Source: Escherichia phage vB_EcoM-UFV09. Taken from it: a DNA stretch of 64,000 nucleotides. Shown in pieces: positions 9,905-59,500 of this stretch (positions are counted from its first letter, which is position 1; each line of letters begins with the position of its first letter). Location of the stretch: the sequence record MZ291552.2. One strand, written 5' to 3'. The position numbers and the translations under genes were made by a program. The notes beneath the pieces were generated by a model. The model had not been told where the DNA came from, ran no database searches, and saw nothing but the letters and a program-made list of their open reading frames with translations.

Positions 9905-9938
9905 TTCAAAATGAAGAAAGGGGCCGAAGCCCCTTACG
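9905..9938 (-). terminator. Rho-independent terminator downstream of hoc
   Basis: ggggc-cgaa-gcccc hairpin; on the minus strand it is followed by a U-rich tract. Confidence 0.6.
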
Positions 9939-9939
9939 A

Positions 9940-11358
9940 TTATGGATAGGTATAGATGATACCAGTTTCTAAAGCTGTTTTGTGAATGATGTATCCATTA
10001 CGCGATTCTTGGACATCAACTTCTGGATAGTCTTTCATCATCTTCTGAAGCGTATAACGATGCAAGTAGTACTTACTATCTGGGTCGTCAGTTTTCCAAT
10101 CTTTACCTTCTTCAGTCATTTTTTGGATTTCATCCATAACCCACCAACCGCACCAGATATAAGCTGAAGTACGGTGCGGAAGAGGATGAACATAAGGCAA
10201 TTCACCTTCTGGTTCTGGAGCAACTTTATCAGTCACTTGAACTTGACCTGTTGTTTTAACTGTTTTGCTATCATAATCAGTTGCTGTAACGACAGCAGTA
10301 ACTTCAATAGTTTGACTTCCAACAGATGAGGTATCGACAGTATATACGTTAGTTGACCCTTCTACAGGAGAAGAATCTTTCTTCCACGAGTAAGTAATTT
10401 GTGCTTCTTCTGGAGCATCCGTAACATTAGCAGTAAATGTAGCCGAAGCATCTTGCTGAACGTTAATAGAAGGAGGAGTCAATGTAACCTGTGGATTCAT
10501 TGTCTTCTTATTAACTGTCAATGATACTTCATTAGAAGTAACTTCCTTTTCATTGTAATTTTCTGCTGTTACTTGGGCTACGCATTTAATTCTTTTTACT
10601 CCACTTGTAGTTGGAGTATAGCTAAATGTAGAGTTAGTTTCTCCACCAACTTGTGAATCATCTACATACCATTTATATGTAGCAGACGCTCCATCAGGTT
10701 GAGAAGCTAAGGCAGCAGTAAATTGAACTGGGGTTCCAATTACTCCAGCTGAAGGACTAGCAGGAGTTACTGCCAATGTAGTTGTCTGTGTCTTTTTATT
10801 AACAGTCAGTGATACTTCATTCGAAGTAACGGTTTTTTCATCATAATTTGTCGCGGTTACTTGAGCTACACACTTGATTTTTTTAACTCCGCTTGCGGCA
10901 GGAGTGTAATTGAATGTAGCAGAAGTCGCTTCGTCTACAGGAGAACTGTCAACGTACCATTGATACGTAGCAGATGCACCTGATGGCTGCGAAGCTAAAG
11001 CAGCGGTAAATTTAACAGCTGTTCCAATTACTCCTGCTGGAGGACTATTGGGAGTTACGGCTAAGGTAGTCGTCTGAGTTTTGTTTTTGACTGTGATAGT
11101 TGTAGTAGCTTCTGCTGTTTCAGCTTCAGATTCTGGAACTGTATTTGTTGCAACAACTTTAATAGTCTTTTAACCAGCAGGACCTTTTAATACATAATCA
11201 AAAGTTGCTTCAGACCCATCTTGTGGAGCATTATCTACACTCCAAGCATAAGTAATAGTTCCACCTCCAGTTTCACCACTGGGTGCAGCAGTAAACTGCT
11301 TGGTTTCATCAATAACTCCTGACGGTGCTTTAGGAGTTATATCAACTGTAAAAGCCAT
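9940..11358 (-). pseudogene. hoc: Highly immunogenic outer capsid protein Hoc, interrupted by one in-frame TAA (plus 11170-11172); about 472 codons if read through
   Basis: N-terminal piece MAFTVDITPKAPSGVIDETKQF...LKGPAG then TAA; the same frame continues KTIKVVATN... with no further stop to 9940 (hand translation); Ig-like repeats and C-terminal capsid-binding region recognised. Confidence 0.8.
10500..11080 (-). repeat. Tandem duplicated Ig-like domain coding units inside hoc (two units of about 290 bp)
   Basis: The two DNA units align with frequent substitutions; encoded peptides LAVTPNSPPAGVIGTAVKFTAALASQPSGASATYQWYVD and LAVTPASPSAGVIGTPVQFTAALASQPDGASATYKWYVD. Confidence 0.7.
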
Positions 11359-11367
11359 AAGTTATCC

Positions 11368-12048
11368 TTATTTTAATGTTACGAAAGAAGAATTGCGTGT
11401 TTCACGAATTAAAACTGATCCGTCGCGATTAATGTAATAAATTAAGCTAAACAAAGTTTGGTGTGCTGACGCGTGTTCAAAACTAGTTGGATGAGATTTC
11501 CAATCAGGAGTTTCAGCGATCCATTGATAAATCCACCAAGGAACCGTACAGAATCCTGGATTTTTCCCCAATAATTGAAGATTCGGGCTAAAGTTTTCCG
11601 GAAGAGTAAATACAGACGGCTTTTCAGATTCAATAATCTCAGCTACAGCTTGTTCAAACTTTTCTTCAACAAAAGGAGTGTCTTCAATCAAAACATCAGT
11701 ATTTTCAGGAATTTTATCCGTTTCTACAACTTCAATTTTAATATCAGATTTAACTGGAGAATCAATCAGAAGCGCTGCTTCTGGATTAACTTCTTCATCG
11801 TCATATTTTAATCCCTCTGCAGCATCAGCAGCATCAATTAAGTCTTTAATAGATAACCCATCAGTCTCTGGCATAGGTTCACTAGCGAGCTTCTGGAGGG
11901 CTTCTTCAATATCAACAACGATATTATCAAAAGATTTATTCTTTTTGACCTTTATACCAAACTGTTCAGCATATTCAGCTAATTTAGCTTTAGCTTCTTT
12001 ATTATCATCAAGAGCCTTCAGCTCTGCAATATAATCTTTATCTATCAT
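11368..12048 (-). CDS. inh: Inhibitor of prohead protease
   Basis: 226 aa, same as T4 Inh; adjacent to hoc. Confidence 0.7.
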   Translation of the reverse strand: MIDKDYIAELKALDDNKEAKAKLAEYAEQFGIKVKKNKSFDNIVVDIEEALQKLASEPMPETDGLSIKDLIDAADAAEGLKYDDEEVNPEAALLIDSPVKSDIKIEVVETDKIPENTDVLIEDTPFVEEKFEQAVAEIIESEKPSVFTLPENFSPNLQLLGKNPGFCTVPWWIYQWIAETPDWKSHPTSFEHASAHQTLFSLIYYINRDGSVLIRETRNSSFVTLK

Positions 12049-12098
12049 AATATTTCCTCAGTATAAATATAGATATATTTATTACATGGTATTTAGAC

Positions 12099-13610
12099 AT
12101 GACTGACATTAAAGTACATTTTTATGATTTTAGTCACGTGAGAATTGATTGTGAAGAAAGTACATTTCATGAACTCCGTGATTTCTTTTCGTTTGAGGCC
12201 GATGGATATAGATTTAACCCTCGCTTCAGATATGGCAACTGGGATGGACGAATCCGTCTTTTAGATTATAATCGCCTTCTTCCATTCGGCTTAGTCGGGC
12301 AAATTAAAAAGTTCTGTGATAACTTTGGCTATAAAGCCTGGATTGACCCACAAATTAACGAAAAAGAAGAATTATCAAGAAAAGATTTTGATGAATGGCT
12401 TTCTAAATTAGAAATCTATTCAGGAAATAAAAGAATTGAACCACACTGGTATCAAAAAGATGCAGTGTTCGAAGGATTAGTTAATCGTCGTAGAATTCTT
12501 AATCTTCCAACATCTGCAGGTAAATCTTTAATTCAAGCTTTGCTTGCACGTTATTATTTGGAAAATTATGAAGGTAAAATTCTTATCATTGTTCCAACAA
12601 CTGCTCTGACAACTCAGATGGCTGATGACTTTGTTGACTATCGTTTATTCAGTCATGCAATGATAAAGAAAATTGGTGGCGGAGCATCAAAAGATGATAA
12701 ATATAAAAATGATGCACCAGTCGTTGTTGGTACATGGCAAACTGTAGTAAAACAACCAAAAGAATGGTTCTCACAATTTGGAATGATGATGAATGATGAA
12801 TGTCATCTTGCTACAGGAAAAAGTATTTCATCTATCATATCAGGTTTAAATAACTGCATGTTCAAATTTGGTCTATCAGGTTCATTACGTGATGGCAAAG
12901 CCAATATCATGCAGTATGTTGGAATGTTCGGTGAAATATTTAAGCCAGTAACGACTTCTAAATTAATGGAAGATGGGCAAGTAACTGAGCTAAAAATTAA
13001 TAGTATTTTTCTTCGTTATCCTGATGAGTTCACTACTAAATTAAAGGGAAAAACTTACCAAGAAGAAATAAAAATTATTACTGGGCTCAGTAAAAGAAAT
13101 AAATGGATCGCTAAATTAGCTATTAAGCTTGCGCAAAAAGATGAAAACGCTTTTGTCATGTTTAAACATGTATCGCACGGTAAAGCTATTTTCGATTTAA
13201 TTAAAAATGAATACGATAAAGTTTATTACGTATCAGGGGAAGTTGATACCGAAACCCGCAATATAATGAAAACCTTAGCTGAAAATGGTAAAGGAATAAT
13301 TATAGTAGCTAGTTATGGTGTATTTTCTACTGGTATTTCAGTTAAAAATCTGCATCACGTTGTTTTAGCGCACGGTGTTAAATCAAAAATCATTGTATTA
13401 CAAACAATCGGTCGTGTATTACGTAAGCATGGTTCTAAAACAATCGCAACTGTCTGGGACCTCATAGATGATTGTGGTGTTAAGCCAAAATCTGCTAATA
13501 CGAAAAAGAAATATGTTCATTTGAACTATCTTTTAAAACACGGCATTGATCGTATTCAGCGCTACGCAGATGAAAAATTCAATTACGTAATGAAAACAGT
13601 TAATTTATAA
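12099..13610 (+). CDS. uvsW: UvsW ATP-dependent DNA helicase
   Basis: 503 aa; Walker A-like PTSAGKS and DECH box (MMNDECH); T4 synteny. Confidence 0.9.
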   Translation: MTDIKVHFYDFSHVRIDCEESTFHELRDFFSFEADGYRFNPRFRYGNWDGRIRLLDYNRLLPFGLVGQIKKFCDNFGYKAWIDPQINEKEELSRKDFDEWLSKLEIYSGNKRIEPHWYQKDAVFEGLVNRRRILNLPTSAGKSLIQALLARYYLENYEGKILIIVPTTALTTQMADDFVDYRLFSHAMIKKIGGGASKDDKYKNDAPVVVGTWQTVVKQPKEWFSQFGMMMNDECHLATGKSISSIISGLNNCMFKFGLSGSLRDGKANIMQYVGMFGEIFKPVTTSKLMEDGQVTELKINSIFLRYPDEFTTKLKGKTYQEEIKIITGLSKRNKWIAKLAIKLAQKDENAFVMFKHVSHGKAIFDLIKNEYDKVYYVSGEVDTETRNIMKTLAENGKGIIIVASYGVFSTGISVKNLHHVVLAHGVKSKIIVLQTIGRVLRKHGSKTIATVWDLIDDCGVKPKSANTKKKYVHLNYLLKHGIDRIQRYADEKFNYVMKTVNL

Positions 13611-22563: not shown

Positions 22564-22617
22564 TCCTCATGTTATGTCAGTAAGATTATTATAACACAAC
22601 ACGAGGGACTTGTAAAC
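22564..22617 (-). promoter_or_regulatory. Sigma70-type early promoter and leader: -35 TTTACA, 17-bp spacer, -10 TATAAT, then GAGGA RBS (copy 1 of a 54-bp exact repeat)
   Basis: Minus strand reads GTTTACA-17 nt-TATAAT; the identical 54-mer recurs at 37872-37925. Confidence 0.65.
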
Positions 22618-24674
22618 TACATTTTGAACTTTTTAGACATTCCGTTGATGTTAACCAAAGAAGCTAAGATTTGAGAAACTTCGTTTTCCTCTTCTTTTGA
22701 TTCTTCTACAAGGAATTGATTAAATCCAGCCATTGGACGAACTTCACCAGTTTCCATCAGATGGTCGCCATCATATACTGATTCTTCTAATTGTTCAGAA
22801 GGAGGAACGATTGTACCTTCGATTAGATACTTGTTATAAGCAGTTTCTTTCATCATGTACGTACTTACTTTATTAATCTTCAGTAAAATTCCACGCGGCA
22901 AAATAACTTCAGCTTCGGATGGAAATCCTGATAAATGACCTGGAACGATAACTTTAACTCGTTCAGCTCCTTTAATTACCATACCTACATTAGTTTCAGC
23001 GTCTTCATTCGCATATGTAGAATGACTACCCATATGCATTAAATCTTCAGCATCAACTGAACCTTCTCCTTCACCAGAAAATACTGCTCCGGAATCATCT
23101 AAGGCCATATAATTTTTACCATATTCACCGAAGATATTTGGCTTGAGTGAAGTAGATACAAAGTTCTTGAAATAGAACATTTTATTTTCTATATTATGAC
23201 GTAAAGTTTTAAAGGTAACTTCTTGCCCACGATAAAGAGTAGTTCCTGGAGGAAGAACTGAACCTTTAGAAAATGCAGAATCCAGCGTCTCAATATGTTT
23301 AATAGCTCGTTCCATATATTCTTCACGGGTAGAATCAGGTTTACCTAGAAGGAACGAGTTCATTTCAACATATGAATCTGCGCAATAATCTTCAATTACA
23401 TCAGACTCAGCCTGAGTTAATCCTTTTGGAGTTACTTCAGTGCTTGCATATTCATATGCCTGAGCAGCAGATTCATCAATTAATTTATAAATTCCATTCA
23501 TTACAAATTGAATAATAGCTGTCTTTTCATCTGGTGTAGCTTTAGAACCTTTAACTAAATCATTGACAATTTTCTTAATAACATCAAAGCTATTAGAAAT
23601 ATTAATGTCAGCAAGATCGCTTAAAATTTTATCAGTTTTATAATCAAAGAATTCTTTATTCTTTAAATATTCTTGAGAACCTTGATATGTTATATCGCTC
23701 TGCAGCTTGATAGATGGATCGCGTAAACGTGCATGGGCCAATGCAATATGATTTCGGAAGCTTTCGAGTTCATAATCACTAGATTTAAAACGAGAAGCAC
23801 TTCTCATACCACCGATAGCTCCTTTGCTAAAGTTTGAACCAACCTGAATAACGCCAGAGTTCATTGGTCCTTCTGCTTTATATACCGGAACTTTAGATTC
23901 AAACTCTTGATATTTCTTAGCAGCGAAGCTATCACCCTGAAGTGAAGCATCAACAGTAGAATATTGAGCTTGTGCTGCTAATCGACGACTAATTTTAGTT
24001 TTCTGAATAACAGCTTGATCCGTGCGCTTATCATTTTCTAAAGCAATAGAAGCAGCAACAGCAACAGCTTTAGGAACAGCATTACCTGTTTTAACGTCTA
24101 CATAAACATCACCAACCTTTGATTCAACTTTTGTGAATAACTCGGTTGAAATAGGAGGTACACCTGGAATGTCTTCTAAATTGGCATTTTTACGGTAAAC
24201 CATAATATATGCGTACTTTTTATCATAATCCCAGATTTCCTTTAAAAGAACATATCGACCTGCTCCTTTAGTACGTACTAAACGGTCAGCAATAACTTGC
24301 ATTTGCCGAGCAGCGCCATTTGTTTTACTTTTTAGTACGCGGAATAAGCATGCATCAATTTTATACTGTTTCATTGTTTGAAGAGCAGTATCAAAAACAG
24401 CATTAATGACGCCAATTGGATTTCCACCCAAGTTTTTAAGCTTAACTAATGATAGTTTCTCATTAACGCCTATCATTACGATATGCATCATTTTGTCGCC
24501 TGGCTTAACGTTTTTATTCGTATCACCGCCAGAGGTGTATGTACAAAATCTAAATCCAGGAAGCACGCTTTCTTCACCTGCTTGAATAGCAAAAATTTGA
24601 GGTATTTTATGCTTAGGATTTAAGTTAACAACCGGCGCCGAAGCGCCGTCAAATAATTCTGTAATAAGTTCCAT
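22617..24674 (-). CDS. Alt-family ADP-ribosyltransferase paralog (internal head protein-like)
   Basis: 685 aa; N-terminus MELITELFD shared with the adjacent Alt; C-terminal R (LYRGQ), STS (NFVSTSL) and E-x-E (EAEVILPRG) motifs. Confidence 0.75.
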   Translation of the reverse strand: MELITELFDGASAPVVNLNPKHKIPQIFAIQAGEESVLPGFRFCTYTSGGDTNKNVKPGDKMMHIVMIGVNEKLSLVKLKNLGGNPIGVINAVFDTALQTMKQYKIDACLFRVLKSKTNGAARQMQVIADRLVRTKGAGRYVLLKEIWDYDKKYAYIMVYRKNANLEDIPGVPPISTELFTKVESKVGDVYVDVKTGNAVPKAVAVAASIALENDKRTDQAVIQKTKISRRLAAQAQYSTVDASLQGDSFAAKKYQEFESKVPVYKAEGPMNSGVIQVGSNFSKGAIGGMRSASRFKSSDYELESFRNHIALAHARLRDPSIKLQSDITYQGSQEYLKNKEFFDYKTDKILSDLADINISNSFDVIKKIVNDLVKGSKATPDEKTAIIQFVMNGIYKLIDESAAQAYEYASTEVTPKGLTQAESDVIEDYCADSYVEMNSFLLGKPDSTREEYMERAIKHIETLDSAFSKGSVLPPGTTLYRGQEVTFKTLRHNIENKMFYFKNFVSTSLKPNIFGEYGKNYMALDDSGAVFSGEGEGSVDAEDLMHMGSHSTYANEDAETNVGMVIKGAERVKVIVPGHLSGFPSEAEVILPRGILLKINKVSTYMMKETAYNKYLIEGTIVPPSEQLEESVYDGDHLMETGEVRPMAGFNQFLVEESKEEENEVSQILASLVNINGMSKKFKM

Positions 24675-24677
24675 GAT

Positions 24678-26771
24678 TTATCCTTGAACGAACTTGTAAG
24701 GCATGTTTGTAATATCTATGCAAGACGCAATAATTCCAAGAGATGATTCTACTTTCTGTTTAATATTTGATGAAACAAATGATGCAAAGTCAACTCTGTC
24801 TTCTATTTCAATATCACCTGTCATTGCAACCAATTCACCAGTTTCCATTAAATGGTCTCCATCATAGATTACCGATTCGGTGAGCTCTTCCGTGGTCATA
24901 ACTTCAGCTTGAATGAGTTTTGTATTATTAGATGTTGTTCCGTCATTATTAGAAGCATCGATTATTTTATTAACTTTGACCATCAATCCACGCGGTAGAA
25001 TAACTTCAGCTTCTGTTGCTATTCCGAGACTTCCTGGATATACAACATTAACTTTATGAGCTCCATCAATTGCCCATCCTATTTGAACTTTAACATATTC
25101 AGGATTTTCTTTATACGCTCTTATTTCGTTTGGATTAATAGTTATTCCTTCTTCATTTTTATCAACTGTTAATTCATTGCGAGCTTCTGGTTCTAAAAGA
25201 CCAATACCAGCATGTGTGATTCCAAAACGTCCAAAAATGATAGGAGTTAAAGAAGTAGATACAAAATTTCTGAAGTAGAACACTTTATTTTTAACTAACG
25301 CTTCATATATAGGAGCAGTCATACTTTGAGCACGATAAACTGTAATGCCTTCTGGTATACGGTCACCATTTTCAAAAGCTGAATCTAAGTTATTTATAGC
25401 AGATTCAATTTCTTTTTCACTCATTACATCGTATCGTTCTGGATTGTAACGACCTAAAAGAAGATTATTGATGTCAGTATATCCTGAACCGCAATATTCT
25501 CTAATGCCACGCTTTTGTGATGGAGTATATTTAGAACCATCGCGGGCAATAGTAATATCAATCATTGGACCAGCACCAATTCCAGAAAAACTGTAAATCA
25601 TTCGTTTGAGGAATTTAGTTTTTGCTGCGTTCCAGGAATTTTTAGTTATTTCTTCCCAGACTTCATCTGGTTGTCCTTTACGATTTTTATTATGATTAGC
25701 AAGCCATTTATCTTTATAATCTTCAAAGAATTGATTTACAGCTGCTGCGTATTTCTCTAAACATTTTATTGAAGTAGTTGGTTCATTTTTAATTGCATTA
25801 AAAATTACTTCTTTAATTTTTTCTGAAACTTCACCGACTTGACTCATTGGAAAGAATTTATAATCATAGTGAAGTTCATCTGCCGTTCCTTCAGCAATAA
25901 TTTTTGCTGCCTTTGTTTTAGAAGCTAATGAATTAATTCCAATTTTCATTTCTTCTGCTTCGGGAATTAAAGGTGCAGTAGCTGGTTTATTAAAATTAGC
26001 TGCTGTAGATTCATACTTCTGGAATAATTCACTTTCAAATCTAGAAGATTCCAATGACTGACTTTGTGCAATTGCTCTACGGGAAATTTTAACTTTAACG
26101 ATTACAGCTTGGTCAGAACGTTTATCATTTTCTTGCGCAATAGATGCTGCAATTGCTTCATTTTTAGTTACTTGAGCTCCAGTATCTTTATTGATATAAA
26201 CATCACCGACCTTCGATTCAACTTTAGTAAAGAGTTCAGTGCTAATTTCTGGAACTCCTGGAATGTCTTCTAATGATACATTTTTGCGATGTATAAGAAT
26301 ATATGCATACTTTTTATCGTAATCCCAGAGTTCCTTAAGAAGGACGTATCTGCCACCTGAACGACTACGGATAAGTCTATCAGCAATAACTTGAATTTGT
26401 CGAGCTTGGCCAGCAGTTTTAGACTTAAGAATACGAAGCATGCAGGCATCAATTTTATATTGACGCATCGTTTGCATTGCAACAGTAAAAACTGAATTGA
26501 TATAATTAATTGGGCTTGGACCAAGACCTTTTAATTTAGCAATTGAGCCTTTAGCAGTTAATGTAAAAGGAACAATATGCATCATTTTATCGCCCATCTT
26601 TAAATCGCGATTAGTATCACCTCCAGATGTATAGGTACATAAACGAAAGCCTGGTTGTTCAATTGCATCATCAACATGAACTGAAAAAATTTGTGGTATT
26701 TTCTTCTTTGGATTTAAGTTTGTAATCGGAAGAGTAGTATCTTCGTCAAATAATTCTGTAATAAGTTCCAT
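24678..26771 (-). CDS. alt: ADP-ribosyltransferase Alt (packaged, injected RNAP-modifying enzyme)
   Basis: 697 aa; N-terminus MELITELFDEDTTLPITNL recognised as T4 Alt-like; VYRAQ, NFVSTSL and EAEVILPRG motifs; position next to gene 30. Confidence 0.8.
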   Translation of the reverse strand: MELITELFDEDTTLPITNLNPKKKIPQIFSVHVDDAIEQPGFRLCTYTSGGDTNRDLKMGDKMMHIVPFTLTAKGSIAKLKGLGPSPINYINSVFTVAMQTMRQYKIDACMLRILKSKTAGQARQIQVIADRLIRSRSGGRYVLLKELWDYDKKYAYILIHRKNVSLEDIPGVPEISTELFTKVESKVGDVYINKDTGAQVTKNEAIAASIAQENDKRSDQAVIVKVKISRRAIAQSQSLESSRFESELFQKYESTAANFNKPATAPLIPEAEEMKIGINSLASKTKAAKIIAEGTADELHYDYKFFPMSQVGEVSEKIKEVIFNAIKNEPTTSIKCLEKYAAAVNQFFEDYKDKWLANHNKNRKGQPDEVWEEITKNSWNAAKTKFLKRMIYSFSGIGAGPMIDITIARDGSKYTPSQKRGIREYCGSGYTDINNLLLGRYNPERYDVMSEKEIESAINNLDSAFENGDRIPEGITVYRAQSMTAPIYEALVKNKVFYFRNFVSTSLTPIIFGRFGITHAGIGLLEPEARNELTVDKNEEGITINPNEIRAYKENPEYVKVQIGWAIDGAHKVNVVYPGSLGIATEAEVILPRGLMVKVNKIIDASNNDGTTSNNTKLIQAEVMTTEELTESVIYDGDHLMETGELVAMTGDIEIEDRVDFASFVSSNIKQKVESSLGIIASCIDITNMPYKFVQG

Positions 26772-37871: not shown

Positions 37872-37925
37872 TCCTCATGTTATGTCAGTAAGATTATTAT
37901 AACACAACACGAGGGACTTGTAAAC
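37872..37925 (-). promoter_or_regulatory. Sigma70-type early promoter and leader upstream of alc (copy 2 of the 54-bp exact repeat)
   Basis: Identical 54-mer to 22564-22617; -35 TTTACA, 17 bp, -10 TATAAT, GAGGA RBS. Confidence 0.65.
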
Positions 37926-50711: not shown

Positions 50712-53700
50712 ATGGCCGAGATTAAAAGAAAGTTCAGAGCAGAAGACGGTCTGGACGCAGGTGGTGATAAAATAATCAACGTAGCTTTAGCTGATCGTAC
50801 CGTAGGAACTGACGGTGTTAACGTTGATTACTTAATTCAAGAAAACACAGTTCAACAATATGATCCAACTCGTGGATATTTAAAAGATTTTGTAATCATT
50901 TATGATAACCGCTTTTGGGCTGCTATAAATGATATTCCAAAACCAGCAGGAGCTTTTAATAGCGTACGATGGAGAGCGTTACGTACTGATGCAAACTGGA
51001 CAACTGTTTCGTCAGGACCTTATCAATTAAAATCAGGCGAATCGATTTCAGTTAACACTGCAGCGGGTAATGACATTACATTTACTTTGCCATCTTCTCC
51101 AATTGATGGTGATACTATCGTTCTCCAAGATATTGGAGGAAAACCTGGAGTTAACCAGGTTTTAATTACAGCTCCGGTACAAAGCATTGTAAACTTTAGA
51201 GGTCAACAAGTACGCTCAGTACTAATGACTCATCCAAAATCACAGATAGTTTTAATTTTTAGTAATCGTCTGTGGCAAATGTATGTTGCTGATTATAGCA
51301 GAGAAGCGGCAGTTGTAACGCCAGCGAGTCTTTATCAAGCGCAATCAAACGATTTTATCGTGCGTAGATTTACTTCTGCTTCAGCAATTAATATTAAACT
51401 TCCTAGATTTGCTAATCATGGGGATATTATTAATTTTGTTGATTTAGATAAATTAAATCCGTTATATCATACTATCGTTACTACATACGATGAAACGACT
51501 TCAGTACAAGAAGTTGGAACTCATTCCATTGAAGGCCGTACATCTATTGATGGTTTCTTAATGTTTGATGATAATGAGAAATTGTGGAGATTATTTGACG
51601 GTGATAGTAAAGCGCGTTTACGCATTATAACAACTAATTCAAACATTCGTCCAAATGAAGAAGTCATGGTATTTGGCGCGAATAATGGAACAACTCAAAC
51701 GATTGAACTTCAGCTTCCAACTGATATTTCTATCGGTGATACTGTTAAGATTTCCATGAATTACATGAGAAAAGGACAAACAGTTAAAATCAAAGCTGCC
51801 GGTGAAGATAAAATTGCTTCTTCAGTTCAATTGTTGCAATTTCCAAAACGTTCAGAATACCCACCTGAAACTAAATGGGTGACTGTTCAAGAATTAGTTT
51901 TTAACGGCGAAACTAATTATGTTCCAGTTTTACAGCTTGCTTATATCGAAGATTCCGATGGAAAATATTGGGTTGTACAGCAAAACGTTCCAACAGTTGA
52001 AAGAGTAGACTCTTTAAATAATTCTACTAGAGCAAGATTAGGTGTAATTGCATTAGCTACACAGGCTCAAGCTAATGCAGATTTAGAAAATTCTCCACAA
52101 AAAGAATTGGCAATTACTCCAGAAACGTTAGCTAATCGTACTGCTACAGAAACTCGTAGAGGTATTGCAAGAATAGCAACAACTGCGCAAGTAAACCAGG
52201 ATACCACATTCTCTTTTGCAGATGACCTTATCATCACTCCTAAAAAGTTGAATGAAAGAACTGCTACAGAAACTCGCAGAGGTGTCGCAGAAATTGCTAC
52301 GCAGCAGGAAACTAATACAGGTACTGATGATACTACAATCATTACTCCTAAAAAGCTTCAAGCTCGCCAAGGTTCTGAATCATTATCTGGTATTGTAACT
52401 TTTGTATCTACTGCAGGAGCTACTCCAGCTTCTAGCCGCGAATTAAATGGTACGAATGTTTATAATAAAAACACTAATAACTTAGTTGTTTCACCTAAAG
52501 CCTTGGATCAGTATAAAGCTACTCCAACACAGCAAGGTGCGGTAATTTTAGCAGTTGAAAGTGAAGTAATTGCTGGACAAAGTCAAGAAGGATGGGCAAA
52601 TGCGGTTGTAACGCCAGAAACGTTACATAAAAAGACATCAACTGATGGAAGAATTGGTTTAATTGAAATTGCTACTCAAAGTGAAGTTAATACAGGAACT
52701 GATTATACTCGTGCAGTCACTCCTAAAACTTTAAATGACCGTAGAGCAACTGAAAGTTTAAGTGGTATAGCTGAAATTGCTACACAAGTTGAATTCGACG
52801 CAGGCGTCGACGATACTCGTATCTCTACACCATTAAAAATTAAAACTAGATTTAATAGTACTGATCGTACTTCAATTGCTACACAAGTTGAATTCGACGC
52901 AGGCGTCGACGATACTCGTATCTCTACACCATTAAAAATTAAAACTAGATTTAATAGTACTGATCGTACTTCTGTTGTTGCTCTATCTGGATTAGTTGAA
53001 TCAGGAACTCTCTGGGACCATTATACCCTTAATATTCTTGAAGCAAATGAGACACAACGTGGTACACTTCGTGTGGCTACACAAGTTGAAGCTGCTGCCG
53101 GAAAATTAGATAATGTTTTAATAACTCCTAAAAAGCTTTTAGGTACTAAATCTACCGAATCGCAAGAAGGTGTTATTAAAGTTGCAACTCAGTCTGAAAC
53201 TGTGGCTGGAACGTCAGTAAACACTGCTGTATCTCCAAAAAATTTAAAATGGATTGTACAGAGTGAACCTACCTGGGCAGCTACTACTGCGATAAGAGGT
53301 TTTGTTAAAACTTCATCTGGTTCAATTACATTTGTCGGTAATGATACAGTCGGTTCTACCCAAGATTTAGAACTGTATGAGAAAAATAGCTATGCAGTAT
53401 CACCATATGAATTAAACCGTGTATTAGCAAATTATTTGCCATTAAAAGCAAAAGCTGCAGATAGTAATTTATTGGATGGTCTAGATTCATCTCAGTTCAT
53501 TCGTAGGGACATTGCGCAGACGGTTAATGGTTCACTAACCTTAACCCAACAAACGAATCTGAGTGCCCCTCTTGTATCATCTAGTACTGCTACGTTTGGT
53601 GGATCAGTTTCAGCAAATAGTACATTAACTATTTCTAATACTGGAACAGCAACTCGATTGATTTTTGAGAAAGGACCTCAAACTGGAACAAACCCAGCCC

Positions 53701-56531: not shown

Positions 56532-59500
56532 ATGGCTACTTTAAAACAAATACAATTTAAAAGAAGCAAAACGGCAGGTCAACGTCCAGCTGCTTCAGTA
56601 TTAGCCGAAGGTGAATTGGCTATAAACTTAAAAGACCGTGTACTTTTTACTAAAGATGACCAGGGAAATATTATTGATTTAGGTTTTGCTAAAGGCGGTA
56701 GTATTGACGGGAATGTTATTCATAAAGGCAATTATAACCAAACTGGAGATTATACTTTAAACGGTACATTCACCCAGACTGGTAATTTTAATTTAACCGG
56801 TATTGCTCGAGTAACTCGTGATATTATTGCTGCTGGGCAGATTATGACTGAAGGCGGAGAACTTATTACAAAAAGTTCAGGTACATCACATGTTCGTTTT
56901 CATGATTCAGCTGACCGTGAACGCGGTATTATTTTTTCTCCTGCTAATGATGGATTAACTACACAAGTAATTAACATCAGAGTTCAAGATTACAAAGCCG
57001 GTTCAGAAAATACTTTTTCTTTTAGCGGTAGTGGTCTTTTCACATCGCCGGAAGTTTCTGCATGGAAATCTATGTCAACCCCCCAGATTTTGACTAACAA
57101 AGTCATTACTAATAATAAATCTACGAGTGATTATGACATTTATTCGATGGCAGACAATGTTCCATTGTCTGAAAGCACTACTGCTATTAATCATCTTCGT
57201 GTTATGCGTAATGCAGTTGGTTCTGGTATTTTTCATGAAGTTAAAGATAATGATGGAATAACATGGTATAGTGGAGATGGATTAGATGCTTATCTGTGGT
57301 CATTTACCTGGAGCGGCGGAATTAAATCAAGTCACTCAATTTCCATCGGTTTAACACCCGGACCTAAGGATTACTCAATATTAGGACCGTCTAGTATCGC
57401 TTTAGGAGATAATGATACTGGATTTAAATGGCATCAAGACGGATATTATTTCAGTGTTAACAATGGCACAAAAACGTTTTTATTTAGTCCCAGCGAAACA
57501 ACTAGCCTAAGAAAATTTGTAGCTGGATATTCTACTAACGGAACCGATTTAACTACTCCTCCAACTGAAAATTATGCTCTTGCTACTGTAGTGACATACC
57601 ACGATAATAACGCGTTTGAAGATGGTCAGACTCTTTTAGGATATTATCAAGGCGGTAATTATCATCACTATTTCCGCGGTAAAGGTACTACAAACATTAA
57701 TACTCACGGTGGTTTGTTAGTTACTCCTGGTAATATTGACGTTATTGGTGGTTCTGTTAATATCGATGGTAGAAATAATGCTTCTACACTGATGTTTAGA
57801 GGTAACACAACTGGTAGTAGTTCAGTTGATAATATGACAATTTCCGTTTGGGGCAATACGTTTACTAATCCTAGTGTAGGTAATCGTAAAAACGTCATGG
57901 AAATTTCTGATGCAACTAGTTGGATGAGCTATATTCAAAGACTTACAACAGGTGAAGTAGAAATGAACGTTAACGGTTCATTTGAATCATCTGGTGTTAC
58001 TGCTGGAAATAGAGGAGTTCACACAACAGGCGAAATTTCATCTGGAGCAGTGAATGCGCTTCGTATTTGGAACGCAGATTATGGAGCCATTTTTAGACGT
58101 TCAGAAGGTAGTCTTCATATTATTCCGACTGCTTATGGTGAAGGCAAAAATGGTGATATCGGTCCACTTCGTCCATTTAGTATTGCTTTGGATACTGGTA
58201 AGGTTGTTATTCCAGATTTAGAATCAAGTTATAACACGTTTGCTGCAAATGGCTACATTAAATTTGCTGGTCATGGCGCGGGTGCAGGTGGTTATGATAT
58301 TCAGTATTCACAAGCTGCTCCTATTTTCCAAGAAATCGATGATGCTGCTGTAAGCAAATATTATCCTATTGTTAAACAGAAGTTTTTAAATGGTAAAGCT
58401 GTCTGGTCTTTGGGTACTGAAATTAATTCTGGTACATTTGTTTTACATCATTTGAAAGAAGATGGTTCACAAGGCCATACATCAAGATTTAATGCTGATG
58501 GTACAGTCAATTTCCCCGATAACGTTCAAGTCGGTGGTGGTGAAGCTACTATTGCTCGTAATGGTAATATTTTCTCAGATATTTGGAAATCGTTTACTTC
58601 TGCGGGAGAAACCACAAATATTCGCGATGCAATAGCTACTCGTGTTGCCAAAGAAGGCGATACGATGACTGGCAAATTAATCGTTAAAAGAGGCTCTGAC
58701 GCTATTAACATTGCTGCCGATGAAAATGATTCTTGCTATTTACTTGGAACATCGGGTGGAGCGAATTCATGGTACATTGGTAAAGGAGGAGCAGATGACA
58801 CTGCTTCATTTTATAATTTCAAAACTACCGCAGGAATTACTCTTAATAGTGTTGGTGATATTGATTTTAACGTTAAAAATCAAGCTACTGCAGCTTCATT
58901 AAATTTTTATCGTTTATATTTAAATGGAAGACAGTGGACAGCTACACAAGGACATGGATATAATAATCAATGGCAAACAGAAGCCCCATTCTTCGTTGAC
59001 TTTGGCGAATCTGTTCCGAAAGATAGTTATATGCCTATAATTAAAGGAAGAAGCCAAATCATTAACGAAGGATATGCCACAAAGGCAGATTTTGGTATTA
59101 TTCGATTAGGCGGAAATGCTACTTGGGGAAATGCAGTAATTCGTGTTGGTTCTGCAGAAAGCGGAGATAGCAGTCATCCTAATGCAATATTTGTGTTTCA
59201 GGCTAATGGCGATTTTAAAGCTCCGGCTGGCCTTCGTGCTGGTGTTAACTTGGGCGTCGGCACAATTCCAGTATGGGGCGGAGCATCTATCGCCATCGGT
59301 GATGATGATACCGGTTTAGTTCATGGCGGCGATGGTCGAATTAATATGTATGCTAACGCGCAGCATATTGCATCATGGGGCACGATGTATCAATCTCATC
59401 CAGGCCTTTGGGATTCATATGGAGCTTTTTGGACAGAAGTTGGCAAAGCAATTATTTCTCATGGCCATTTAGTTCAGGCGAATGACAGTTATTCCACATA

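Follow-up and report, generated by a model that had tools for sequence, protein, structure and literature searches.

Hoc is a decoration fibre located at the centre of every capsid hexamer (gp23) in T4-like phages, where it mediates phage adherence to mucus, and T4 nanoparticle vaccines use it as their main platform for display. In Escherichia phage vB_EcoM-UFV09 (sequence record MZ291552.2), the 64,000-nucleotide stretch of DNA analysed here (hereafter the window) carries a hoc locus that was proposed, from a reading of its letters alone (the sequence-only reading), to contain an extra, tandemly duplicated Ig-like domain when compared to T4 hoc. This raises the question of whether the extra module is indeed a duplication particular to this phage, and whether the phage can be expected to display the longer Hoc that such a gene would encode.

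Identity and annotation of the hoc locus

Translation of positions 9940–11358 on the minus strand yielded a Hoc-like protein of 472 codon positions (Table 1). In a phmmer search against PDB sequences this conceptual protein matched T4 Hoc (5vf3_Z, with an E-value of 4e-219), and it also matched PHROG 1149 ("Hoc-like head decoration", with an E-value of 4e-144). The gene order in the window (i.e., RNA ligase, two small ORFs, hoc, an Inh-like ORF of 226 aa, and helicase) is annotated alike in phage ECP52 and puts hoc in the conserved T4-like position (rnlB – 24.2/24.3 – hoc – inh – uvsW). Moreover, several related records annotate a "terminator" at the place of the hairpin that directly follows the hoc stop codon, and no exact match to the late promoter TATAAATA was found on the minus strand upstream of inh-hoc (positions 11359–12100).

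The 1501-nt locus is 100% identical to that in the vB_EcoM-UFV10 and UFV11 records (Tequatrovirus from wastewater in Brazil, according to these records) and 99.9% identical to that of UFV05 and UFV06. Its closest intact relative is ECP52 (98.5% nucleotide identity across the whole locus), in which hoc is one 1419-nt gene annotated as "head decoration protein", and ECO4 is 98.2% identical to the window across the same locus. The annotation of the UFV records breaks hoc up into several small and seemingly unrelated CDSs, with UFV10 having a 189-nt CDS for the N-terminal piece. Likewise, the program-made list of open reading frames contained a 62-aa ORF (11170–11358) and a separate 278-aa ORF starting from an arbitrary TTG (9940–10776), and no single gene.

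Table 1. Features of the hoc locus and their positions in the window (all on the minus strand).
Feature	Position	Strand	Basis or remark
hoc, four-Ig "472-aa class" allele with an in-frame ochre codon	9940..11358 (terminal stop included)	–	Translation and homology
Sole segment of Hoc for which translation is predicted (first 62 residues, covering some two thirds of Ig domain 1)	11173..11358	–	
Premature TAA (ochre) at hoc codon 63	11170..11172	–	CAA (Gln) in UFV05, ECP52, and T4
Repeat unit A (alpha type), Ig-like module extra to T4 Hoc, codons 95–190	10789..11076	–	
A7 homopolymer in unit A (GTT AAA AAA ATC, encoding VKKI), intact in the window	10878..10884	–	
Repeat unit B (beta type), codons 191–286, orthologous to Ig domain 2 of T4 Hoc	10501..10788	–	
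Last Ig-like domain, orthologous to domain 3 of T4 Hoc, residues ~289–378	10225..10494	–	T4 alignment, Pfam, and structural model
C-terminal capsid-binding domain, residues ~379–472	9943..10224	–	Near-identity to T4 Hoc 283–376
Terminator-like stem-loop AAGGGGC-TTCG-GCCCCTT, followed by a T run	9918..9935	–	Directly after the hoc stop

Two 288-nt units encode consecutive Ig-like domains

The sequence-only reading had placed two adjacent units of about 290 bp at 10500–11080, and these were confirmed. A repeat finder revealed a single direct-repeat family of 2 × 288 nt with 75% identity, the two members of which are units A and B of Table 1, and Tandem Repeats Finder recovered the same array (10501–11076) with a period of 288, 2.0 copies, 76% matches, and a score of 663. 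The units form an exact tandem, are equal in length and in frame, and the peptides LAVTPNSPPAGVIGTAVKF... and LAVTPASPSAGVIGTPVQF..., with which their domains had been introduced, were both found in the minus-strand translation.

Alignment to T4 Hoc by phmmer paired query residues 1–103 with T4 residues 1–103, and query residues 189–472 with T4 residues 93–376, which amounts to a clean insertion of 96 residues. The proposed conceptual lengths (472 vs. 376 aa) and the presence of one Ig-like module more than in T4 are therefore correct. Unit A on its own matched PHROG 1149 as well (E-value of 8.5e-15).

The Ig-like nature of these modules was supported by domain and fold prediction. On the conceptual translation, the Pfam PKD family scored 39.9 bits (vs. 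a gathering cut-off of 23.5), and sub-threshold matches were obtained for Ig_2, Ig_3, and I-set, with those to Ig_3 and I-set located at residues 289–356. An AlphaFold2 model covering residues 93–472 only, and built from an alignment of 20 sequences (mean pLDDT of 81), displayed three consecutive all-beta sandwich units with a pLDDT above 90, unit A being one of them; the C-terminal domain was modelled poorly. When this model was compared to the PDB via Foldseek, the top matches were NCAM Ig1-3 (Ig1-2-3) and RB49 Hoc (3SHS, its N-terminal domains), and the C-terminus retrieved the capsid-binding domain of T4 Hoc (8t1x_X) at 99% identity. The latter domain also matched phrog_21694 (E-value of 9e-42). 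The conceptual protein hence combines the two hallmarks of Hoc, i.e., an N-terminal string of Ig-like domains and a C-terminal capsid-binding domain homologous to residues ~281–376 of T4 Hoc, with which conceptual residues 377–472 are nearly identical in the alignment.

While the claim of Ig-like domains stood, that of their near-identity did not, since units A and B share 74–76% of their DNA and 74 of their 96 residues (77%). By the Nei-Gojobori method, their synonymous divergence is close to saturation (dS of 1.33), with a dN of 0.157 and a dN/dS of 0.12.

The four-Ig allele is widespread and its units are of distinct types

In a search of about 5.8 billion proteins, 895 homologues were found at E < 1e-10. 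Among the best 120 clusters of these homologues, 80 were 376–379 aa, 30 were 468–472 aa, nine were 567–570 aa, and one was 365 aa in length. Hoc size classes are thus spaced by one unit of 96 residues, corresponding to 376 aa (three Ig-like domains, as in T4), 472 aa (four), and 568–570 aa (five), and the comparison with related phages that the sequence-only reading had called for came out in whole-module steps of 376, 472, and 568 aa. All 29 clusters with a length of 472 aa are uninterrupted.

At the nucleotide level, records were sampled at even spacing through the ranking of 678 matching phage records, and 51 of those sampled spanned the whole locus. The span was ~1212 nt in 30 of them (including T4, RB3, RB55, and RB68), ~1500 nt in 20 (including RB27), and 1801 nt in one (YUEEL01, encoding 568 aa). 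The four-Ig allele of 472 aa thus accounts for 20 of the 51 full-length records sampled, or about 39% of the sampled Tequatrovirus, and the four-Ig (472-codon) hoc is, as far as these records go, a widespread allele rather than a peculiarity of the phage in the window.

Clustering of 163 middle units, cut from Hoc proteins, yielded three types (alpha, beta, and gamma) at 15% distance. The alpha type, to which unit A of the window belongs, is seen at position 1 in all eight 568/570-aa forms and in 29 of the 30 with 472 aa. The beta type is mostly found at position 2 and includes both unit B of the window and domain 2 of T4 Hoc, and most five-Ig forms have the gamma type at position 3. Among the 376-aa forms, 35 have an alpha-like, 42 a beta-like, and two a gamma-like single unit. 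Scoring of these units at seven diagnostic positions showed many to be mosaic, with patterns such as "aaaaabb" (10 cases), "baaaabb" (23 cases), and the T4 pattern "bbbbabb" (11 cases), and it was always the beta-type end of the mosaic that abutted the last Ig-like domain.

Two further observations concern the three-Ig forms. Ig domain 2 of T4 is itself a mosaic, being beta overall with an alpha-like "ATDYDALSV" patch, and among 79 Hoc proteins of 376 aa the single-unit alleles comprise alpha-core, beta, and mosaic classes.

These distributions bear on the age of the extra module. If unit A had arisen by a recent tandem duplication private to this phage, or by misassembly of a repeat, the exact adjacency of two in-frame units of 288 nt each would be readily accounted for. 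However, ~25% of the bases differ between the units and their synonymous divergence is saturated (dS of ~1.3), so that an assembler could not have created such copies, nor would they be expected from a recent duplication. Moreover, about 20 of the 51 independent genomes sampled, RB27 and PP01 among them, have two units arranged alike, with alpha and beta orthologues. Unit divergence and distribution among relatives hence led us to reject both a recent duplication and an assembly artefact, the probability of which we consider to be close to nil. Because of the high dS between the units and the existence of positional orthologues in many phages, units A and B are best regarded as old paralogues under purifying selection, and not as a fresh duplication. 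The tandem, in-frame units proposed for hoc were thus confirmed, and the interpretation placed on them was supported in part.

Since the size classes are spaced by whole units of exactly 96 codons and many single units are alpha/beta mosaics, we infer that copy number changes via in-register unequal homologous recombination between the 288-nt repeats. Such recombination would predict loss as well as gain of a unit, and its direction could have been either, i.e., a deletion in the T4 lineage or a gain in the lineage of the window phage. The alpha/beta/gamma analysis in this way offers a simple picture of how alleles with three, four, and five modules may interconvert.

A premature ochre codon interrupts hoc at codon 63

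In an alignment of four loci, codon 63 of hoc reads TAA in the window and in UFV10, and CAA in UFV05 and ECP52. T4 and every other locus that was fetched have Gln at this codon, whereas the T at window position 11172 (position 107260 of the record) is identical in the UFV10 and UFV11 records. A single C-to-T change would thus have turned the Gln63 codon CAA into TAA in the allele shared by the window, UFV10, and UFV11, and the stop lacks the conservation in relatives by which a read-through codon might be recognised.

A phage-encoded ochre suppressor was considered as well, and rejected. No tRNA genes are present within the window, and the tRNA cluster of UFV10 (located outside the window) comprises 11 ordinary tRNAs, among which there is a Gln(TTG) and no ochre suppressor or TTA anticodon. 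Because of the TAA at codon 63 and this lack of a phage ochre suppressor, only a fragment of 62 aa is to be expected from the locus. This product would correspond to part of domain 1 without the capsid-binding domain, as the latter lies downstream of the premature stop and hence outside translation from the hoc start. In other words, there is no intact frame in the window that joins the Ig-like string to its capsid anchor.

Downstream of codon 63, no in-frame restart was found that has a convincing Shine-Dalgarno sequence and keeps both units. Past the stop, an in-frame start is first encountered at codon 195, a TTG that has no Shine-Dalgarno sequence and is the sole one upstream of unit B. 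Later candidates would yield at most the last Ig-like domain and the anchor, and a TTG at codon 387, preceded by GAAGGTGAA, would give the capsid-binding domain alone. Internal re-initiation that would display the duplicated units therefore seems unlikely.

It could still be argued that hoc is functional and that a full-length four-Ig Hoc of 472 aa is displayed, with the TAA being a sequencing or consensus error, or being read through efficiently. Apart from codon 63, the hoc frame is indeed fully open and 93–98% identical to intact orthologues, and all that lies beyond the stop retains the look of a functional gene. However, the very same T occurs in two records (UFV10 and UFV11), a substitution is atypical for homopolymer error, and the siblings UFV05 and UFV06 carry another knockout in hoc. 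Moreover, the phage provides no ochre suppressor tRNA, and an analogous ochre mutation in T4 hoc results in particles without Hoc: the T4 mutant HAP1 (T4 delta-Hoc) has a spontaneous C496T mutation in hoc, changing CAA to TAA, and its capsid is devoid of Hoc (PMC10580926). We consequently deem display of a full-length Hoc by the window phage highly improbable, although some low-level read-through of the ochre codon by the host may occur. Because the rest of the frame is open and this similar to intact orthologues, the lesion itself is probably very recent.

As sequenced, the hoc of the window is thus a null allele or pseudogene and not a working hoc; full-length Hoc is probably not made, and virions are predicted to be devoid of it by analogy with T4. 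Taken together, we hold with considerable confidence that this locus comprises old paralogous units within a common four-Ig allele that has become null in the window phage by an ochre mutation at Gln63. The sequence-only reading had made the 472-aa product dependent on the gene being read through and had left the stop unmentioned, and it is precisely this reading through that the in-frame TAA at codon 63, with no ochre suppressor at hand, prevents. Since hoc cannot be read through, the further suggestion that the extra module may change the reach of the capsid surface does not apply to the window phage, the gene of which is broken at codon 63. For phages with an intact allele, the number of Ig modules would set the reach of the fibre and the glycans it can bind, with an expected gain of about 45 Å per module, given a length of 180 Å for the T4 fibre with its four domains (PMC10385173).

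Parallel loss of hoc in sibling isolates

Codon 63 is still CAA in UFV05 and UFV06. Their ORF is truncated after 40 codons by the deletion of 1 nt at window position 11280 (codon 27). Over 64.2 kb, only six positions distinguish UFV10 from UFV06. Two are the hoc lesions, gene 37 accounts for two more, and motA and an alt-like gene have one each. The near-clonal set of four isolates as a whole differs at about 6–7 positions per 64 kb. As each lineage is intact at the site of the other's lesion, it follows that hoc was working in their common ancestor and that the gene was lost twice.

Given that hoc makes up 2.2% of the window, the binomial probability of finding at least two of six differences within it is ~0.007, a value that ignores the fact that both are knockouts. 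This suggests that the UFV lineage has recently been under selection for, or has at the least wholly tolerated, the loss of Hoc, as judged from four closely related records of one laboratory. Speculatively, Hoc might plausibly have been lost during isolation or propagation. These paired independent knockouts in siblings are the sole mildly unexpected element of the locus. A search for papers on UFV05, UFV06, UFV10, and UFV11 or on their hoc lesions found none, and the papers found on UFV13 do not mention hoc. In practice, the split annotation as small CDSs in the UFV records conceals the loss of hoc, and UFV10/UFV11 and UFV05/UFV06 should be treated as Hoc-negative in work on biofilms, mucus, and immunology.

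Split hoc genes in other Tequatrovirus records

At least six further Tequatrovirus records (SfPhi01, UPWr_E2, GEC_SH_GT, FN, ACG-C40, and BYEP02) have hoc annotated in pieces. In UPWr_E2, FN, and ACG-C40, a +1 or –1 frameshift is located in the A7/A8 run encoding SGVKKIKC, which accounts for three of the five simple frameshifts, and SfPhi01 and GEC_SH_GT have single-base insertions at other hoc sites. In BYEP02, a junction segment where the capsid-binding domain at the C-terminus starts is duplicated. These split hoc records may reflect sequencing errors.

One reading of this pattern is that hoc is a contingency (on/off) locus, in which mutation-prone sites such as the A7 run switch Hoc display, and that the UFV null alleles represent the "off" state as sampled. 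The existence of further split hoc genes, the share of them that falls in the A7/A8 run, and the occurrence of two independent knockouts inside one clonal group would all be in line with such switching. Nevertheless, both UFV lesions are located away from homopolymers, frameshifts at homopolymers are among the classic sequencing errors of deposited genomes, and no hoc revertants are known. In addition, exact-match scans of IMG/VR retrieved four contigs with the in-frame A7 run and none with A6 or A8, in a sample so tiny that the comparison is underpowered. We therefore give very little credence to on/off switching as the origin of the UFV null alleles.

A broader reading starts from the two knockouts in four near-clonal isolates and the split hoc genes in other genomes. 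On these grounds, Hoc display could be under recurrent negative selection in some common condition, with hoc (and notably the four-Ig form with its A7 run) behaving in a contingency-like manner and often being switched off, rather than being kept stably as a decoration gene. Conditions that might select against Hoc include plaque picking, stickiness to the host surface, and the cost of 155 long fibres per head. We regard this recurrent selection as rather unlikely, and retain the reading of a common four-Ig allele made null by the ochre codon in the window phage.

Other features of the window

Apart from hoc, the window has a number of features that merit description. In gene 34 (encoding the proximal subunit of the long tail fibre; plus strand), a perfect in-frame tandem duplication of 99 nt (2.0 copies, 33 aa) is present at 52775–52972, and apart from this 99-nt copy, the window and the GenBank record of UFV10 are the same throughout the 64 kb. 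Among 511 matching records, the duplication is absent from UFV05, UFV06, UFV10, UFV11, and seven others listed (with spans of 350–352 nt, corresponding to one copy). It would stem from one of three sources: a duplication of very recent date, two sequence versions that disagree, or an artefact or edit within the window.

A perfect direct repeat of 54 nt is located in two intergenic regions 15 kb apart (22564–22617 and 37872–37925). It contains GTTTACA and TATAAT separated by 17 nt, and looks like a duplicated early promoter of the T4 type. At the position of T4 alt, two large genes are adjacent to each other on the minus strand (22617–24674 and 24678–26771, encoding about 685 and 697 aa), one of which is annotated as RNA polymerase ADP-ribosyltransferase and the other as hypothetical. 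This pair may consist of tandem alt paralogues.

The remaining differences among UFV05, UFV06, and UFV10 are located at 57619, 59361, 59379, and 59418 (gene 37), 24468 (the alt-like gene), and 63947 (motA), with UFV05 and UFV06 differing from each other at three gene 37 sites and one further site. The differences concentrate in the C-terminal part of gene 37, i.e., the receptor-binding tip of the distal tail fibre, and those in gene 37 look like micro-adaptation of host range.

Comparison with known Hoc systems

Variation in the number of Hoc modules has been explicitly described (PMC10385173; PMC11853027; PMC11150434). Fokine et al. (2023) identified 650 Hoc homologues, most of which are strings of one to ten Ig-like domains on a conserved C-terminal anchor, and the Hoc of Serratia phage Muldoon (1174 aa) has ten of these domains (PMC10385173), whereas that of phiPNJ-9 is without domain 3 (PMC11853027). 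It is hence well known that Hoc varies in its number of domains, and annotations of the 472-aa form are routine and present in hundreds of genomes. The Hoc proteins of Muldoon and phiPNJ-9 resemble that of the window in having Ig-like domains strung onto a conserved capsid anchor at the C-terminus, but they are far more divergent, while variation of the type found in the window occurs within one genus and involves units of near-identical length.

When compared to T4 Hoc (376 aa; PDB 5VF3 and 8T1X), the gene of the window likewise lies between inh and the 24.3/rnlB block, and domain 1, the beta unit, the last Ig-like domain, and the capsid-binding domain are collinear and near identical. T4 has one middle unit (beta with an alpha-like patch) where the window has two (alpha followed by beta), and T4 hoc is intact where the window has a TAA at codon 63. 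The 472-aa Hoc proteins of ECP52, ECO4, RB27, PP01, and numerous further Tequatrovirus phages have the same four-Ig architecture and unit order as the window, and are encoded by intact 1419-nt ORFs instead of one with a nonsense codon. The five-Ig Hoc proteins of YUEEL01 and UGKSEcP1/2 (568–570 aa) share the 96-residue units of the window and their register, and have one unit more, of the gamma type and at position 3.

The closest parallel to the lesion itself is that of HAP1, in which a CAA codon of hoc was likewise spontaneously changed to TAA. HAP1 virions were reported to lack Hoc. The ochre codon of HAP1 is at codon 166 of a 376-aa allele, whereas that of the window is at codon 63 of a 472-codon allele in the deposited genome of an environmental isolate.
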